In this document: positions 17,546 through 23,864 of the stretch, one piece after another
Layout of the letters: the number at the start of each line of letters is the position of its first letter
Numbering within the stretch: position 1 is the first letter of the stretch
Assembly (NCBI GenBank): GCA_038046005.1
Contig: JBBSXB010000001.1
Location: 107,213-171,212, forward strand
Direction: 5' to 3'
DNA from: Nanobdellota archaeon
GTDB taxonomy: Archaea > Nanobdellota > Nanobdellia > Pacearchaeales > GW2011-AR1
DNA: 64,000 nt
Notes under the pieces: model-generated
Told to the model about the DNA's origin: nothing
The model's input: only the letters and a program-made list of their open reading frames with translations
The model's database searches: none
Translations under genes and position numbers: made by a program

Positions 17546-17666
17546 CTAAAAAATAAATGAATTTCCCTCCAAAAAATTGGGTGCGAGATAGATAAAAATT
17601 GAGGTAAGATGAAATTTACGACGTAAAAAAAGAAATATTTATAAAGGTTGAAAATCTAAATTGAGT

Positions 17667-18299
17667 ATGTTTGATTGGTTCTTTAAAAAAAGAGAGAAAA
17701 AAGAGTTAAAACACATAGAAGAAGATACAAAAAAGGGTTTTGAAAGTGTCAAAAAAGATATAACAGCTGTAATAGGATGGATCAAACACCTAGATTCTGA
17801 GAAAAATCTGCAACAAAAAGAGATTGAAGACATAAAAGAGGATTTGTCGACGGTAAAAAATGACATTGAAAGCATTAAAAATATCATAACTATGATGAAT
17901 GAATTAAAACCTCAAGGAGTGTTTAAAACAAACAGACAGGTGTTTAAAGAACAAACACCTGTTTATGCTGTTCAAACAGTTGACCAAACAGGCGTTCAAA
18001 CACCAAATTTAAACCAATTTTCAGTAACTGAAAGAGCAATTCTATGGATTCTCTTAAACTCAGAAATGAAACTGGGATATGAAGATCTAGCTGCAATGTT
18101 GGGAAAAGAAAAGTCCACCATAAGGGGGCAGATAAATAGTATAAAACAAAAAAGTGAAAATTTGATAAGTGAAATTACTGAAAAAAATGGAAAAAAGAGA
18201 GTATATATAAGTGAAGAAATGAGGGAAAAAATGCTGAAAAAGTCAAAAGTGAGAGTTGGAAATAAGAAAAAAACTGAGAAAAAAGAAGAAAAAGTCTGA
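17667..18299 (+). CDS. Coiled-coil plus C-terminal winged-helix protein
   Basis: Heptad-rich N-terminus, VQT-rich linker, TERAILWILL...GYEDLAAMLGKEKSTIRGQINSIKQK helix-turn-helix. Confidence 0.8.
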   Translation: MFDWFFKKREKKELKHIEEDTKKGFESVKKDITAVIGWIKHLDSEKNLQQKEIEDIKEDLSTVKNDIESIKNIITMMNELKPQGVFKTNRQVFKEQTPVYAVQTVDQTGVQTPNLNQFSVTERAILWILLNSEMKLGYEDLAAMLGKEKSTIRGQINSIKQKSENLISEITEKNGKKRVYISEEMREKMLKKSKVRVGNKKKTEKKEEKV

Positions 18300-18497
18300 A
18301 AAGTAAGGAAAAATCAATAAAAAACGATTAAAAAAACAAAAAGTGAGAGTTAAATTACAAGAAAAACAATAAAAAATAAATTACTAAGTGAAAAGTGAGA
18401 TGAAAAAATAAAAATGAATTTAAAAAGATTACAAAAGTCTGAAAATGAGAGATACAATAAATGGTAAAAACATAGTTAAAAATAGAAAAATGAGAGA
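18239..18497 (+). repeat. Phased AAAGTGAGA / AAAGTCTGAAAA repeat array
   Basis: Copies near 18246, 18291, 18340, 18392, 18435 and 18489, spaced about 45-55 bp on an A-rich strand. Confidence 0.6.
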
Positions 18498-18641
18498 AAA
18501 ATAAACTTTGAAAAATTGGACTAACTTGAAAAATTAAAAAATAGGCTTTTTAGGGGCTAAAAAGACAAAATTTATAGGTATGAAAAAATAAACAAGAAGA
18601 AAATGTTCTATTAGAAATTGTTTTGTTGAACGAATAACTAT

Positions 18642-19373
18642 TTACAATTCTCTAAGTTTTAATATTGTTTGAAGGGAGGCAATTTTCTTTAAGCCGGCTG
18701 AAACGTTTAAATGGACATTCTTATTGTTAAGTTTGATTTTATCGACGGGAATTCCCTTTGAGATGATCTTACTGATATAATCTCTTATGGAGCTTTCAGT
18801 AAGGTTAAGCTTCAGGGCAATGGCCTTATAATCAGCATATCCTTGCTCTTCCTCTAGCTGGTATAATGTTGAAAATACTAAAATTTCCTTTTCTGTAAGC
18901 TTCTTGAATTTCAGCCTTATTTCTTTTTTTAAGGTATCTAAAGATTCAAGTATTTTGGAGGCATCGTGAAGGGTAGTTTTGGGAATCTCTAAAGGAAAAA
19001 TCAAGCTATTTTGTGTCTGTTGGTCTGTCTGTTGGTCTGTCTGTCTGTCTGCTGGAACCCCATCATTTCCTATGGAAATAGCTTGATTTTGGGGTTTTAA
19101 AGCCTTAAAAGACTCATTATCTGCTGGGCTTTGTGTTGAGGTTGTCTTATTCTCCAAACTATGTGATGGAGTTAAAAAAGTTGAATTTTGAAGTATTTTA
19201 GAAGAAATAGAAATTAATTCCCTGTTTAAATCCTTTAACTCTCTAACCTCTTCCCCTAAATTGGAAAGTTTCCAATTCAACTCCACTAGGTTGGTTTTTA
19301 GAGAATTTAACTCGTAACTAAGAGAAGAGATGTCTTGTTTAACTTTTTGAAAGGCCTCTTTTATCTCATCCAT
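18642..19373 (-). CDS. Coiled-coil plus C-terminal winged-helix protein, similar architecture to 17667..18299
   Basis: IKEAFQKVKQDI N-terminus, DRQTDQQTDQQT linker, LTEKEILVF...YKAIALKLNLTESSIRDYISKI HTH. Confidence 0.8.
   Translation of the reverse strand: MDEIKEAFQKVKQDISSLSYELNSLKTNLVELNWKLSNLGEEVRELKDLNRELISISSKILQNSTFLTPSHSLENKTTSTQSPADNESFKALKPQNQAISIGNDGVPADRQTDQQTDQQTQNSLIFPLEIPKTTLHDASKILESLDTLKKEIRLKFKKLTEKEILVFSTLYQLEEEQGYADYKAIALKLNLTESSIRDYISKIISKGIPVDKIKLNNKNVHLNVSAGLKKIASLQTILKLREL
19014..19078 (-). promoter_or_regulatory. Intragenic ORB-like box followed by ACAG/ACC repeats
   Basis: Minus strand TTTCCATAGGAAATGATGGGGT (19078-19057), then CAGACAGACAGACAGACCAACAGACAGACCAACAGACA. 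Confidence 0.6.
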
Positions 19374-19422
19374 TTTAATTTATAATAAAAAGAGTATAAA
19401 AAGATTATAGTAATGGAGAATA

Positions 19423-19701
19423 TTAAAAATTTTGAGGTTGACTTTTTTTATAGGAGGAATAAGCTTCATCGCTTAATTTCCACCGGGATCTTCTTAGATA
19501 GACTTTTCCGAGTGGATTTTTGTTTACCTCTACAATAAGTTTCTTGGCTTTCAGATCCTTGAGAAGTCTTTTAACAAATTCCTCATCCCGAGCTATTTCT
19601 CTTGCTACATAATACGTAAACATAGGTTGGGGTGAAACAGAATAGAGAAAAGCTAGAATCTGTTCGCATATCTTCTGCTTTTTCTCTTTTGATATGTACA
19701 T
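19423..19701 (-). CDS. Small winged-helix protein
   Basis: MYISKEKKQKICEQILAFL...VAREIARDEEFVKRLLKDL...RRSRWKL. Confidence 0.7.
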   Translation of the reverse strand: MYISKEKKQKICEQILAFLYSVSPQPMFTYYVAREIARDEEFVKRLLKDLKAKKLIVEVNKNPLGKVYLRRSRWKLSDEAYSSYKKSQPQNF

Positions 19702-19759
19702 TAAAGGAAAAATAAAAGGGTTTATATAAAGGTTTTTGAAAGAAAGATTATTATGGGGG

Positions 19760-20176
19760 TTAATTCTCAATCTCGTCCTTTTTTAAAGAAGGTAATTGAA
19801 TATGGAGGGGTATGCCCAGCTCTTCTTCTAATTGAAGCGCCTTGAGGGTCGATTTCCTTAAAATAGAGTTAAGGATAAAGAGATTGAAGGCTTCTGGAGC
19901 ATTTTTATCCTTCCATGTACTCAACACTTCTTTGGATATTTTAGGGTCAACAGAAACAAGAGTATTTCCCTCAAAAAAGATCTTGGCGAAGTCCGGTTCA
20001 TAATTAAGAGAAAAACTGAATTTCAAGTTCAAAAGAGATTCTTTAGAGTTAAATATATCTGCCTTAGCTTCACTGATATCGAGTATATCCATTTTGGTGT
20101 TTATATTTACACCTTTAAAGTTGGTGGAATTTCGTTCCGCGTTTATCCTTGTAAAATTAAATCCTAAGAGTTTCAT
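19760..20176 (-). CDS. Conserved hypothetical protein, possibly SecB-like fold
   Basis: Beta-rich N-terminus followed by a helix; TATA upstream; fold assignment is a guess. Confidence 0.55.
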   Translation of the reverse strand: MKLLGFNFTRINAERNSTNFKGVNINTKMDILDISEAKADIFNSKESLLNLKFSFSLNYEPDFAKIFFEGNTLVSVDPKISKEVLSTWKDKNAPEAFNLFILNSILRKSTLKALQLEEELGIPLHIQLPSLKKDEIEN

Positions 20177-20215
20177 ACTAAATGGTAAAGAAAATTATTT
20201 TTAAATATTTAGGTA

Positions 20216-20485
20216 CTAAATTAAGTCTTCCTCAGATACTATAACAAAATCGCCTATGGCGATTATAGCACTATAAGGGACTAATAAGTCATTTGAAGAA
20301 GTTTTTTCAAGATTTAAGTTCCTCGTGTAAGGTGTTGCATCTTTAACAACTAAACTGATAAGCTCACCAGATCTAGTCTCAAAGGTAACATCTTTGACAA
20401 AACCAAGTCTTTTACCCTCTTTCGTGACAATCATCTTGCCTAAAAGCGCACTAAATGGATTTTTATTGTCTTGCATGTTAAGCAT
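20216..20485 (-). CDS. PRC-barrel protein (CdpB-like)
   Basis: LLGKMIVTKEGKRLGFVKDV...VPYSAIIAIGDFVIV. Confidence 0.88.
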   Translation of the reverse strand: MLNMQDNKNPFSALLGKMIVTKEGKRLGFVKDVTFETRSGELISLVVKDATPYTRNLNLEKTSSNDLLVPYSAIIAIGDFVIVSEEDLI

Positions 20486-20576
20486 AGAAGAGATTTGTTT
20501 ATAAATTTTTCTGTACCAACAAATAGATTTGAAAGAATATAGATAACTGGATTAATGGAAGATAATAACGAGCAGA

Positions 20577-21085
20577 CACACTCCTTGATTTCGTTTGGAA
20601 AAGATTTATAAAGGATTTTTTAATTTTTTTTGTTTTTGTTTTATTTATAAATTTTTCTATAATAATATAATATAATATAATATAATTAACTTATCTTGAA
20701 TTATTATTATTATTATTATTATTATTAATTTGTATTAAGCCGCTAATTTTATTGTGGGATTTAAAAGAACAAAATGCTAATCTGGAGTTCACAAGGACTT
20801 TAATGGTTCTTATTCATGATAGTTATTATTAAATTTTCTAACAAAAGATATTCCAATCTCCCATATAACATTAAAGTTGAAGTTTTAAAAATTAAAATTA
20901 TCATAAAAGCCATGATAACTTATATTTACCAATAATCATCTTATCTTTAAAGAAGCGTTTTCCATTAGAAATTAAGGCGTCTTTCTTTCTTAGTAGTCAT
21001 AATCCTTTATAAAAAGAATACTTCTTTTTCCGTTGAGGAAATTTTTGAATAAACAATCTCCAGTGGAAATTAGCGTGTGGGTGTG
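20577..21085. other. Putative replication origin oriC
   Basis: ORBs: TTTCCAAACGAAATCAAGGAG (minus, 20581-20601), TTTCCATTAGAAATTAAGGCG (20959) and TCTCCAGTGGAAATTAGCG (21057); AT-only TATAA and TTA repeats at ~20655-20730; adjacent to orc1/cdc6. Confidence 0.85.
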
Positions 21086-21096
21086 AAAAGAATAAA

Positions 21097-22308
21097 ATGA
21101 CTAACGAACTAGACCAAATTTTTGAATCGTTTACGAAAAATAATATTTTCAAAGATAAATCTCTATTACAGGCCTCATATAAACCGGACAAAATTCTTCA
21201 TAGAGATCAACAAGTCAACCAGATTGCGTCTATTTTAGCCCCCGTTCTCCGAGGAGAGAAAACCAGTAATTTATTTCTTTATGGAAAAACTGGGACTGGG
21301 AAAACCCTTTCTGTTTATTATGTTAGGGAAGAATTGATGAAGAGAATTAATAAAAGCGAGGATTTTAAATTGAGAATAGAATATCTCAATTGTAAATTAA
21401 AGAAAGTTTCAGACACCGAATATAGAATTTTGGCAGAACTTGTAAAGAAATTTGGTGGAGAAGTGCCTGCAACGGGGCTTCCTACAGAGTCTGTTTATAA
21501 TAAATTTATAGAACTCATAGACAAAGAGAAACAAATTATAGTCTTGATTTTAGATGAGATTGATCAAACTGTCAAAAAGATTTCTAGCGATTTTTTGTAC
21601 AACCTAACAAGGTTAAACTCAGAACTTTCAAAAACGCAACTTTGCATTGTTGGAATAAGCAACAATTTGACTTTTTTGGAGGAACTTGACCCAAGAGTCA
21701 GGAGTTCCTTATCTGAAGAAGAAATTGTTTTTCCACCTTATAATGCTTTACAACTTAAAGATATCTTAAACCGGAGATCAGAGCACGCATTCAAGGAAGG
21801 AGTTTTACAACCTGGAGTCATTGACAAATGCTCGGCTTTTGCAGCAAGGGAGCATGGTGATGCAAGAAGGGCCTTGGACCTTTTGCGAATTGCTGGTGAG
21901 CTGGCCGAAAGGGAAGGGAGTAAAAAAATTTTGTTAAAACATATTGATGAGGCAAATGACAAAATTGAGAAAGACAAAATACTAGATGTTATAAAAACAG
22001 AGCCAAAACAATTCCAACTTGTTCTTTACTCTATAATGAAACTTTCAGACAAAAAAAACGGAGAGCCCCTGTTTACTGGAGATGTCTATAATTTGTATCA
22101 GGAAATTTGTTTAAAAAATAAACTAGAAGTTTTAACCCAAAGAAGGATGAGTGACATAATCCAGGAATTTGACATGTTGGGGATTATTAATGTTAAGGTT
22201 ATTTCAAAGGGGAGAGGGGGGAGGATGAGAGAAATTAAACTGGCTATCTCGAAGGATGTTCTCTTCAAAGCAAGAGAAATTGTTGAAGATTCTTTAGATT
22301 ATAAATAA
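21097..22308 (+). CDS. cdc6: Orc1/Cdc6 replication initiator
   Basis: YGKTGTGKT, ILDEID, DPRVRSSL, GDARRALDLLR, C-terminal winged helix. Confidence 0.97.
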   Translation: MTNELDQIFESFTKNNIFKDKSLLQASYKPDKILHRDQQVNQIASILAPVLRGEKTSNLFLYGKTGTGKTLSVYYVREELMKRINKSEDFKLRIEYLNCKLKKVSDTEYRILAELVKKFGGEVPATGLPTESVYNKFIELIDKEKQIIVLILDEIDQTVKKISSDFLYNLTRLNSELSKTQLCIVGISNNLTFLEELDPRVRSSLSEEEIVFPPYNALQLKDILNRRSEHAFKEGVLQPGVIDKCSAFAAREHGDARRALDLLRIAGELAEREGSKKILLKHIDEANDKIEKDKILDVIKTEPKQFQLVLYSIMKLSDKKNGEPLFTGDVYNLYQEICLKNKLEVLTQRRMSDIIQEFDMLGIINVKVISKGRGGRMREIKLAISKDVLFKAREIVEDSLDYK

Positions 22309-22313
22309 CTAAA

Positions 22314-23864
22314 ATGGACGCAAAAGAAATACTAAAATTTTGTTTAGAAAGAGGACTTTTAGTCGATCAAGAAGTTTTAACTTTGCTTAGTGGCGAGTCT
22401 GATTTAGAGTCTGTTAAACTTATGATTGAAAAAATAAAGACCCATACACAAAAAAAGATTATAACTAAAGAACTTTTTATTCAAAATAAAGATAAAGTCG
22501 GCAAATTTTTTTTAACTCTGCCGGAAGAGAACCAACAACAACTTGAGAAGCTGAAAATAAAACTTGGATTAAGCATAGAAATATCTAAGGAAATTTCTAT
22601 TTCTGGCGAGAAAACAATCCCAGATGACATCGGACATAAAGGAGATGTTAAAATTTTGTCGCTTAGCGGGCCTATTGGAAAAAGGTTTGATTCTGGAGAT
22701 TTTGTTAACTATTTCAAAGGGAGATTTTCTGAGATGAGGGGATTTTTACAGAGCAATCCTATTCTTGAAAATTTAGTTTCAATAGACAAGATATCTGGAG
22801 TTCGTCATGGAATTTCTATAATCGGGATGGTTTATGAAAAAAGAGTCACTAAAAATCAGAATATTATTTTAGATATTGAAGATTCTACTGGAACAATAAA
22901 AGTTTTAATCAATAAAGACAAAGCGGAACTTTTGAAAAAAGCTGAGGAAATTGCATTGGATTCTGTAATTGGTTTTAAATGTTCTGGGGGCAGGGAGATG
23001 CTTTTTGTCAATGATATAATTTTTCCGGAGGCAATGTTATTAGAAAAAAGAAAATCTCCTGTCGAAGAATATGCTTTGTTTGTAAGCGATGTTCACTATG
23101 GCAGCAAGAATTTTATGAAAGAAAATTTTTTGAGATTTATTGATTATCTAAATAGTGATGACCTTGAAGTTTCAAAAATAAAATATGTTTTTATAATCGG
23201 TGATTTGGTTGCGGGTGTTGGGGTTTATCCTAATCAAGAAAAAGATCTAGTAGTTGTTGATTTAGAAGATCAGTACACTGGAATTGCCGAACTTCTTGGA
23301 AAGATAAGGAAAGACATAATATTGATAATTTCAACAGGAGATCATGAGGGAGTAAGAATTATGGAGCCACAACCTCTTTACGATGAGAAACATGCTTGGG
23401 CCTTGCACCAAATGGATAATGTCATTCTTACTGAAAATCCTGCTTTGGTGAGTGTTGGGACAAAAAAGGATTTTTCTGGAATTAAAGTTTTATCTTATCA
23501 CGGTCATTCTTACCCATTTTATGCCAATAGTGTCCCAAGGCTCATGAAGATGAAAGCAATGAATTATCCTGAAAAAATTATGGAATACTTGCTTAAACAT
23601 AGACATCTTGCACCAACTCATGGGTCAACACAGTACTTTCCGACAAAAGATGTGCATATAATCAGAGAAATTCCAGACATTTTTGTTTCTGGACATACCC
23701 ACAAAAGCGGAGTTACTTATTTTAATAACGTACTCGTTATTTCGTGTTCGTGCTGGGAAACTCTTACTTCTTACCAGGAAAAAGTAGGCAATATGCCTGA
23801 CCATTGCAAAGTTCCTTTAGTAAATTTGAAGACGAGAGCAGTTAAAATTTTGGACTTTGAGTGA
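22314..23864 (+). CDS. polB: DNA polymerase D small subunit DP1
   Basis: OB fold, SDVHYGS, GDLV.GVGVYP, RHLAPTHG, GHTH. Confidence 0.93.
   Translation: MDAKEILKFCLERGLLVDQEVLTLLSGESDLESVKLMIEKIKTHTQKKIITKELFIQNKDKVGKFFLTLPEENQQQLEKLKIKLGLSIEISKEISISGEKTIPDDIGHKGDVKILSLSGPIGKRFDSGDFVNYFKGRFSEMRGFLQSNPILENLVSIDKISGVRHGISIIGMVYEKRVTKNQNIILDIEDSTGTIKVLINKDKAELLKKAEEIALDSVIGFKCSGGREMLFVNDIIFPEAMLLEKRKSPVEEYALFVSDVHYGSKNFMKENFLRFIDYLNSDDLEVSKIKYVFIIGDLVAGVGVYPNQEKDLVVVDLEDQYTGIAELLGKIRKDIILIISTGDHEGVRIMEPQPLYDEKHAWALHQMDNVILTENPALVSVGTKKDFSGIKVLSYHGHSYPFYANSVPRLMKMKAMNYPEKIMEYLLKHRHLAPTHGSTQYFPTKDVHIIREIPDIFVSGHTHKSGVTYFNNVLVISCSCWETLTSYQEKVGNMPDHCKVPLVNLKTRAVKILDFE

Follow-up and report, generated by a model that had tools for sequence, protein, structure and literature searches.

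Why should a protein-coding gene carry an ORB? ORBs are known as intergenic origin elements, and the one well-documented cluster of them within a gene, that in dp1 of the Thermococcales, has no assigned function. The question is raised by a 64,000-nucleotide stretch of DNA from a Nanobdellota archaeon (the whole stretch analyzed, called the window here), in which a near-consensus ORB sits within a gene close to orc1/cdc6. The genome itself is small, 0.87 Mb with 33% G+C on 15 contigs, and 98% complete. Our answer is that this 22-bp box is likely a genuine, functional element of the ORB class, and most probably a high-affinity site for Orc1/Cdc6 embedded in DNA that encodes a protein linker. 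Much of what follows is about how the box is conserved, what else could account for that conservation and which known systems it resembles.

The box, TTTCCATAGGAAATGATGGGGT, lies at 19057-19078 on the minus strand, where it provides codons 99-106 (ISIGNDGV) of a 243-residue open reading frame (18642-19373, minus strand) that belongs to no named family. An earlier note on this DNA had picked it out as a near-consensus ORB on the minus strand inside coding sequence, and so it proved to be. It consists of a dyad, TTCCA-TA-GGAAA, a spacer, TGAT, and a G run, GGGG-T. The dyad core, TTTCCATAGGAAAT (19065-19078, minus strand), has the invariant TTCC...GAA of a mini-ORB, and across 32 loci TCCA and GAAA hold 1.8-2.0 bits of information per position. 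The polar G-string of a full ORB is present as well: GGGG follows 4 nt past GGAAA, and in the same 32 loci each of its four positions carries 2.0 bits. The departure from a textbook ORB is in its location, since the box lies inside an open reading frame 1.5 kb from the AT-rich region at about 20601-20740 and not in intergenic DNA flanking a duplex unwinding element.

How unusual is such a sequence? The pattern TTCCANNGGAAAN{2,6}GGGG matches once in the window, where 0.04 matches are expected and 4 of 100 shuffles do as well, and once in the whole 874,611-base genome, while TTCCANNNGAAANNNNGG matches three times in the window against 0.05 expected, a count reached by none of 100 shuffles. The latter has four genomic matches, three of them within 1.9 kb beside orc1. 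When the background is gauged with a matrix from 30 relatives, the box's own genus excluded, the box comes first in its genome at 37.9 bits and ten Markov-simulated genomes give maxima of 10.4-24.1 bits; the high scores of intragenic boxes with intragenic-box matrices are circular, because the matrices are built from them, whereas matches next to orc1 are not. In its own genome the box is single copy.

The neighborhood is that of a putative origin. The orc1/cdc6 gene (21097-22308, plus strand), with Cdc6_C, Cdc6_lid and AAA domains, is the sole Cdc6_C-bearing gene found in this 98%-complete genome and is followed by the gene for the small subunit of PolD (22314-23864). Upstream of orc1 is a 610-nt region with three ORB-like sites and a very AT-rich stretch. 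The distal site, TTCCAAACGAAATCAAGG (20583-20600, minus strand), is second in the genome at 17.2 bits and has the polarity of the box, just as the earlier note had observed. It abuts a putative unwinding region (20601-20740) containing (ATAAT)5 and (ATT)9, where public assemblies break. The proximal site, TTCCATTAGAAATTAAGG (20960-20977, plus strand), is inverted relative to the distal one and ranks sixth at 12.6 bits, and the third, TCTCCAGTGGAAATTAGCGTGTGGGTG (21057-21083, plus strand), ends 13 nt before the ATG of orc1; a displaced G run keeps its matrix score under 10 bits. The box does have a better G-string than these three, as had been claimed for it: GGGG compared with GGAG, GGCG and GCGTG...GGGTG. 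Since the 12.6-17.2 bits of the intergenic sites fall within the range of the simulated genomes, their identity as ORBs in this genome rests on position and arrangement. Genes to the left of the intergenic region point left and those to the right point right; GC skew is too coarse to tell this region from the host gene.

Relatives carry the same arrangement. A second matrix, made from the 32 intragenic boxes alone, was run over both strands of the 32 loci (414,069 bases) with a threshold of at least 10 bits. It returned 66 other matches, 56 of which fall within 800 nt upstream of orc1, in 31 of the 32 loci, and form inverted pairs, with a '-' copy proximal (median 130 nt) and a '+' copy distal (median 334 nt). 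The remainder are five extra copies in the linker-coding DNA, at most 120 nt from the box, and five matches elsewhere. The consensus of the intergenic sites is TTTCCA..aGAAAT.aaGGGGT-like and is without the tail that follows the box (described below). The inverted ORB pairs on either side of the AT-rich region ahead of orc1 and the box belong to a single motif class.

The weight of our argument is carried by the codons. We compared 109 homologues: the window's own gene, 21 loci from relatives' genomes, 80 genes from species-representative genomes and 7 from other orders. Loci L021-L030 were omitted because they are probable duplicates of species already among the 80, and, relatives not being independent samples, the counts given here imply more independent events than there were. 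The proposal had been that synonymous variation is suppressed over the S-x-G-N-x-G-V codons, and it is, strongly. Serine is TCC in 108 of 108 homologues (6.4% of serine codons genome-wide) and the first glycine GGA in 104 of 104 (54% of glycine codons); asparagine is AAT in 95 of 107 (72%), the second glycine GGG in 108 of 108 (15.6%) and valine GTT in 99 of 102 (53%). Not one of the 109 keeps the peptide in codons that destroy the box. The codon 3' of the serine begins with A in all 109 while its residue varies (T/I/S/N/K), and the codon 5' of it mostly retains a T at its third base while its residue varies (I/F/S/V/L); the spacer codon, which separates AAT from GGG, is unconstrained (E/Q/R/K/G/D). 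The positions that vary are the dyad centre and the spacer between dyad and G run, and those that are fixed are the dyad and the G run. Read from the alignment, variation runs opposite to what protein coding would give.

Twenty family-level homologues, whose proteins are about 50% identical, tell the same tale in a codon alignment over a longer block, I-S-T-G-N-x-G-V-P-T-D-R-Q, which is conserved as nucleotides. Conserved residues within it use essentially one codon each, compared with 3-6 codons for invariant residues of the C-terminal domain. A co-occurring strain of about 84% identity, found in contigs of four public runs, differs from the box at 19072, the dyad centre, and at 19062, in the spacer; it is not independent evidence, as it is probably a same-genus relative already analyzed. 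Because letters are retained across the class, silent codon positions included, the DNA itself is under selection: on the evidence of these alignments, selection is shown to act on DNA letters and not on the peptide.

Extra copies of the box make the same case from another angle. Two genomes (G017 and G018) have a further direct copy, 43 nt upstream and read in another frame (VPQEIGGLK versus ISTGNRGGPT). Two loci (L044 and L047) have an inverted copy 62 nt upstream, within the open reading frame, and another (L041) has one 58 nt downstream, inside the gene. Two linker copies are present in 5 of the 32 loci in all (L031, L032, L041, L044 and L047). The same DNA word is evidently retained whichever peptide results, which excludes explanations at the level of the peptide or of rare codons.

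How far does the element extend? The host gene is found in 50 of 61 relatives, and its family, found only in Nanoarchaeota/Nanobdellota, includes genes from MAGs labeled Candidatus Pacearchaeota, Woesearchaeota or Nanoarchaeota. A 27-nt pattern of core plus tail, allowing up to two mismatches, occurs in 49 of the 61 relatives, nearly always once (reversed control, 0), and in all 80 further homologous genes from species-representative genomes. Among 401 genomes sampled across the phylum it occurs in 48 (reversed control, 4), including 25 of 27 in the organism's own family and sporadic cases elsewhere. Of ten fetched matches that come from beyond the order, seven fall within homologous coiled-coil/wHTH genes (27-40% identity) with the same codon phase, and three do not. 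The element is best regarded as ancient within Nanoarchaeia.

The gene also keeps company with orc1. Gene and orc1 are on the same contig in 32 pairs, all no more than 14.8 kb apart. In the 31 pairs that were fetched and the window's own, the two genes are divergent and the box is 1.6-14.6 kb from the start of orc1, with distances of 1.6-2.9 kb in eleven close relatives and 5.6-14.6 kb in the 21 remoter loci. One pair outside the fetched set (G007) is on a single contig about 2 kb apart, and in other orders all three same-contig pairs are close (6.9-14.3 kb) and divergent. The remaining gene-bearing genomes have orc1 on a different contig or, in one case (G041), none was found; several of those orc1 contigs end at the origin region, as do public assemblies of the present organism. 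The earlier note had suggested that the box extends the origin by about 1.5 kb. That suggestion is weakened, since the same box in the same gene stands 5.6-14.6 kb from orc1 in the remoter relatives and therefore goes with the gene, not with any set distance to the unwinding region. Distances that vary tenfold (1.6-14.6 kb) make it less likely that the box is a structural part of the unwinding region itself, and the conserved proximity to orc1 could be plain inherited synteny combined with replication-coupled gene orientation.

What sort of protein does the gene encode? Apart from the box, the gene is fast-evolving. An AlphaFold2 model, built with a 32-sequence alignment, predicts a long N-terminal helix that forms a coiled coil (residues 2-63), a disordered linker with pLDDT below 50 (residues 64-133) and a C-terminal MarR/CodY-like winged helix-turn-helix domain with pLDDT 73-95 (residues 135-242). 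Residues 99-106, which the box encodes, are predicted to fall in the middle of the disordered linker. Foldseek's best match was 1s3j, YusO (E 2.7e-4), and the C-terminal domain of CodY gave an rmsd of 3.6-4.1, which identifies a generic wHTH only. The best Pfam scores were 19.4 bits for HTH_36 and 19.3 bits for HTH_11, both under the cut-off of 25; no NCBIfam model came near its cut-off, and in the ESM Atlas the protein matches only hypothetical HTH proteins of Nanobdellota. Its recognition helix, L(T/S)ESSIRDY, is largely constant among homologues.

Conservation does not stop at the G run. The box is followed by a conserved tail, TCCAGCA (19050-19056, minus strand), which in relatives is mostly TTCCAACA or TTTCGACA, counted from the preceding T. 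Only the intragenic box has this tail, which the intergenic ORBs lack, and the intragenic site may therefore be recognized by another protein, either instead of Orc1 or along with it. Then comes an imperfect (GACA)n tract, also readable as a 12-nt unit (GACCAACAGACA), at 19014-19049 on the minus strand, which encodes DRQTDQQTDQQT. This is the ACAG tract that had been described as directly following the box; it does follow, in imperfect form and with TCCAGCA in between. Over 19014-19051, a period of 4 (TGTC on the plus strand) gives 9.5 copies with 76% matches and the 12-mer gives 2.6 copies with 100%. The unit depends on the lineage: (RACA)7-10 in the organism's own family, 11-nt units repeated three to four times in other families and, in other orders, (AACA)n, (AATC)n or a 15-nt unit. 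That a period of 11 nt occurs within an open reading frame shows that the repeats arise at the DNA level. Such lineage-specific, homogeneous repeats may be slippage-driven linker sequence without function and, since slippage alone yields them, an iteron role for the tract is not assumed here.

Several further observations belong to the repeats. The word TYCRACA occurs in the 32 linkers 100 times in the sense orientation and once in the antisense, a density of 14.9 per kb against a background of 0.57 per kb. As an origin motif it was rejected, being enriched in the linker only and found at 0.45 per kb at the orc1 intergenic region; it may be a slippage-homogenized (P/S)-T-(D/H) peptide repeat. 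Where the unit is CTACGTCA, in three loci, the recognition helix and wing differ as well, but these loci are of one lineage, and the association is confounded. Repeats of AAGTGAGAG downstream of the gene, considered as a general signal, turned out to be local only (8 in the genome against 7 for a control word). As to features of phase variation, the tract is imperfect (76%, period 4) and in all 109 homologues the frame runs through the box without a stop. Public contigs from four runs break at the tract, at 19019-19056.

What, then, binds the box? The most economical reading would seem to be that Orc1 binds within the host gene, because the box shares its motif class with the ORBs next to orc1 in these same genomes. 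We regard the box as an accessory ORB that is probably bound by Orc1/Cdc6. The competitor that survives best has some other protein at the site, perhaps the wHTH protein that the gene encodes, which would make the box an autoregulatory, centromere-like or iteron-like site. On that view specificity would reside in the tail and repeats, and the ORB-like core would be either shared or a coincidence. This is unlikely in our view, though there is a fair amount to be said for it. The tail (TTCCAACA/TTTCGACA) is restricted to the intragenic site, oriented tandem repeats come after it (11-nt units in several families, and TYCRACA with its 100 sense to 1 antisense copies in 32 linkers), and the host protein is predicted to be of a DNA-binding type, a wHTH with a coiled coil. 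Sulfolobus origins, moreover, employ an extra sequence-specific factor, UBP, as its description has it (PMC12141716). Yet the part of the element that is invariant is exactly the ORB dyad and G run, the same motif appears in both orientations beside orc1, and ORBs are described as Orc1/Cdc6 sites in lineages without this protein family (PMC1904270). The repeats weigh against it too: the intergenic region at orc1 shows no enrichment of TYCRACA (0.45 per kb), units vary by lineage while the recognition helix stays largely constant, differences in the helix are confounded with lineage, and slippage alone would also produce lineage-specific repeats in a disordered linker.

Might the constraint act instead on the mRNA of the linker-coding region, through a structure, a motif bound by protein or a signal for recoding or pausing? 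We think this very unlikely. The box and the TYCRACA repeats are indeed strand-specific within the gene, TTTCC could pair with GGAAA and GGAA with TTCC, and (ACAG)n encodes the same TDRQ repeat in all three frames. Against these points, the predicted fold of 19000-19110 (minus strand) is no significant improvement over shuffles (z-score -1.30, with 19 of 200 at least as good), and a search of 18000-21500 on both strands gave 0 Rfam 15 matches at E up to 1. An RNA signal would also not explain the untranslated copies on the orc1 side or the inverted copies in L044, L047 and L041. The stems, being invariant, provide no covariation information either way.

Still less probable, to the point of being hardly credible, is selection on the peptide S-x-G-N-x-G-V-P-T, with its codons reflecting bias or a rare-codon pause between domains. 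The peptide is conserved, and TCC and GGG are rare codons (6.4% and 15.6% shares) placed between two folded domains. The common codons GGA, AAT, GTT, CCA and ACA are, however, fixed equally strictly, and in the neighboring codons individual bases hold constant even where the residue does not. Further copies of the motif are found in another reading frame, in reverse orientation and between genes, and the region is predicted to be disordered (pLDDT below 50). The reading is contradicted by the frame-independent copies and by the 109 homologues, none of which has the peptide in other codons. A chance resemblance to an ORB in an AT-rich genome, suggested by the abundance of short dyads such as TYCCANNNGAAA (39 in the genome), has next to no probability, given that the full pattern is unique in the genome, that the box scores 37.9 bits against a simulated maximum of 24.1 and that conservation in 109 homologues refutes it.

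The preferred reading, an accessory ORB bound by Orc1, can be set against systems that are better understood. The 22-bp ORB of Aeropyrum has a spacing between dyad and G run identical to that of the present box. Like the ORBs of Sulfolobus oriC1 and Pyrococcus oriC, the box is polar, has a dyad with TTCC and GAA and has its G run at a fixed distance; as at those origins, inverted copies of the motif flank an AT-rich region beside orc1 in these genomes. Unlike them, it is intragenic, single, 1.5-15 kb from orc1 and without an adjacent AT-rich unwinding region, and it has an extra conserved tail and then tandem repeats. The Pyrococcus study describes binding of Cdc6/Orc1 to ORBs in which the motifs 'TTCC' and 'GAA' are perfectly conserved, with good binding to single full ORBs (PMC1904270). 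The ORB1 and ORB2 oligonucleotides printed there have a C/G run a few bases from the dyad, and in these P. furiosus sequences (PMC1904270) 8 nt separate GGAAAT from the run, compared with 3-4 nt in the box. For Sulfolobus, the account is of one Orc1-1 monomer per ORB with a defined polarity and of inverted ORBs flanking an AT-rich region (PMC12141716).

The nearest precedent is the Cdc6-bound ORB cluster in dp1 of the Thermococcales. There, too, ORB-class sites (ORB3 and mini-ORBs, in Pyrococcus and Thermococcus) occupy coding sequence by the origin and cdc6. Matsunaga et al. (2007, PMC1904270) report that this cluster in the dp1 coding sequence is conserved across the order and that Cdc6/Orc1 binds it both in vivo and in vitro. 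The present box differs in its host gene, in lying on the opposite side of orc1 and in being one full ORB where dp1 has several sites; in its own genome there is no matrix match in or near the dp1 gene. A comparison can also be made with UBP of the Sulfolobales, whose ucm is placed inside the unwinding region whereas the box is in a gene (PMC12141716). The UBP study asks whether divergent lineages have analogous origin proteins (Dhanaraju et al. 2025, PMC12141716). In our searches of the literature on archaeal and DPANN ORBs and on intragenic Orc1 sites we found no description of the present element, and two 11-nt dyad words turned up only in ORB-bearing papers on Methanomassiliicoccales and Thermococcus barophilus.

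Analogies beyond the archaea are looser. Bacteria have DnaA-box clusters outside oriC, such as datA in E. coli and the origin-proximal clusters of B. subtilis, some of them intragenic, and these modulate initiation by titrating or inactivating the initiator. The box, as a candidate initiator site outside the origin proper, resembles them; it differs in being a single site and not part of a bacterial DnaA system. The iterons of the lambda origin, inside gene O, and parS, inside spo0J/parB, are sites bound by the product of the gene in which they lie. As in those cases, the box is a DNA site in coding sequence near an origin, is conserved at the nucleotide level and falls in or near a flexible part of the encoded DNA-binding-type protein. 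Unlike them, its invariant core is an ORB and its expected binder is Orc1.

If Orc1 is the binder, it would engage the box as a monomer whose polarity is set by the G run, as at characterized ORBs, and the box would then be an accessory initiator site outside the unwinding region. Two roles strike us as the most likely. The box could be an operator or roadblock that couples expression of the wHTH protein to occupancy by Orc1, a coupling that the earlier note had also raised, or it could bind Orc1 in an auxiliary or titrating capacity and so modulate the origin nearby, in the manner of the bacterial DnaA-box clusters. A linker tolerates almost any peptide, and this would explain how 22-27 bp of fixed sequence can be accommodated within an open reading frame of a very compact genome.

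A more ambitious reading, doubtful but worth stating, is that this linker segment is a dedicated cis-acting control locus of Nanoarchaeia chromosomes, with the encoded wHTH/coiled-coil protein as its partner. The locus would comprise the invariant Orc1 box and the lineage-specific oriented repeats, with a second direct or inverted box in some lineages. The gene would be both a trans factor and the carrier of its own site, like lambda O/ori and spo0J/parS. Together they might form an initiator-coupled module for regulation, secondary loading or segregation, one whose place beside oriC would predate the divergence of the orders within the class.

Whichever role applies, the finding is of an ORB that a whole class of not-yet-cultivated DPANN archaea has retained, at the level of nucleotides, within one particular gene. 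It offers a clean natural example of a DNA site, putatively of the protein-binding type, that overrides the degeneracy of the genetic code. The box is of practical use too: unique in most of the genomes searched, it can mark the origin-proximal region in fragmented Nanoarchaeota MAGs, and as a short duplex it would open the initiator biology of DPANN archaea to cell-free study. It also points to a candidate functional link between Orc1 and an uncharacterized, origin-linked wHTH protein, at a time when accessory origin factors of archaea, such as UBP in the Sulfolobales, are only starting to emerge.

Besides the box itself, the 22-nt ORB-class sequence at 19057-19078 (-) that is a putative Orc1/Cdc6 site, the neighborhood of the host gene (18642-19373, -) contains another word at the nucleotide level, the 11-mer TTAAAACGAAC, usually followed by TTT. 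Nine of the 21 remoter loci we fetched (L031-L051) carry it in the DNA encoding the disordered linker, all nine in relatives from other families (L037, L038, L041, L042, and L044-L048). There it lies at offsets of -26, +63, or approximately +74 from the box and is translated in two frames, as IKTNF or LKRTF. Ten loci have an inverted copy immediately beyond the host gene's 3' end, 570 to 1150 nt downstream of the box.

The linker-coding DNA holds a shorter word as well, TYCRACA, which is identical to a word in the tail, the conserved bases directly after the G run of the box. Across the 32 loci with an intragenic box, between -130 and +80 from the box, we counted 100 copies on the sense strand vs one on the antisense. 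Offsets of about -94, -73, -64, and -50 are favored, and the rare serine codon TCG is frequent within the copies. TYCRACA may be a (P/S)-T-(D/H) repeat homogenized by slippage, or it may be an oriented DNA repeat.

At three loci (L133 in G254, L134 in G280, and L141 in G310), a nearly perfect box that retains most of the tail is located outside any host-gene homolog. These copies sit in short ORFs or in AT-rich noncoding DNA, lack an orc1 gene in the surrounding 2 kb, and may be either ordinary origin ORBs or relocated copies of the box element.

On the 3' side of the host gene, an A-rich spacer of 340 nt separates it from a convergent gene (17661-18299, +). The G+C content here (18240-18500) is the second lowest within the window, and five copies of AAARTGAGAG, all on one strand (+), recur through the same interval at spacings of roughly 46 to 93 nt. 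AAARTGAGAG is not a common word, matching eight times genome wide vs seven for a control word. At the equivalent spacer position in relatives, AAAGTGAGAG and a TTAAAACGAAC word occur about 13 nt apart. On the other side, the host gene is separated from the origin region by three small genes (19423-20485, -). One encodes an 89-residue PRC-barrel protein (PF05239, E 2.2e-9); the other two products, of 115 and 138 residues, have no match in Pfam or NCBIfam.

The genome of the window has a single Cdc6_C gene. Five genomes from other orders of the class (G117, G193, G200, G290, and G337) encode a second, distant Orc1/Cdc6 paralog, on another contig and 28 to 34% identical to the window's protein.

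Public-assembly contigs of the window's organism break off at 19019-19056, by the imperfect ACAG repeat tract, and at 20613-20738, by the AT-rich origin stretch. In several metagenome-assembled genomes of relatives, the orc1-bearing contig stops no more than a few hundred bases from where orc1 begins. Assemblies of these genomes seem to break systematically at origin regions.
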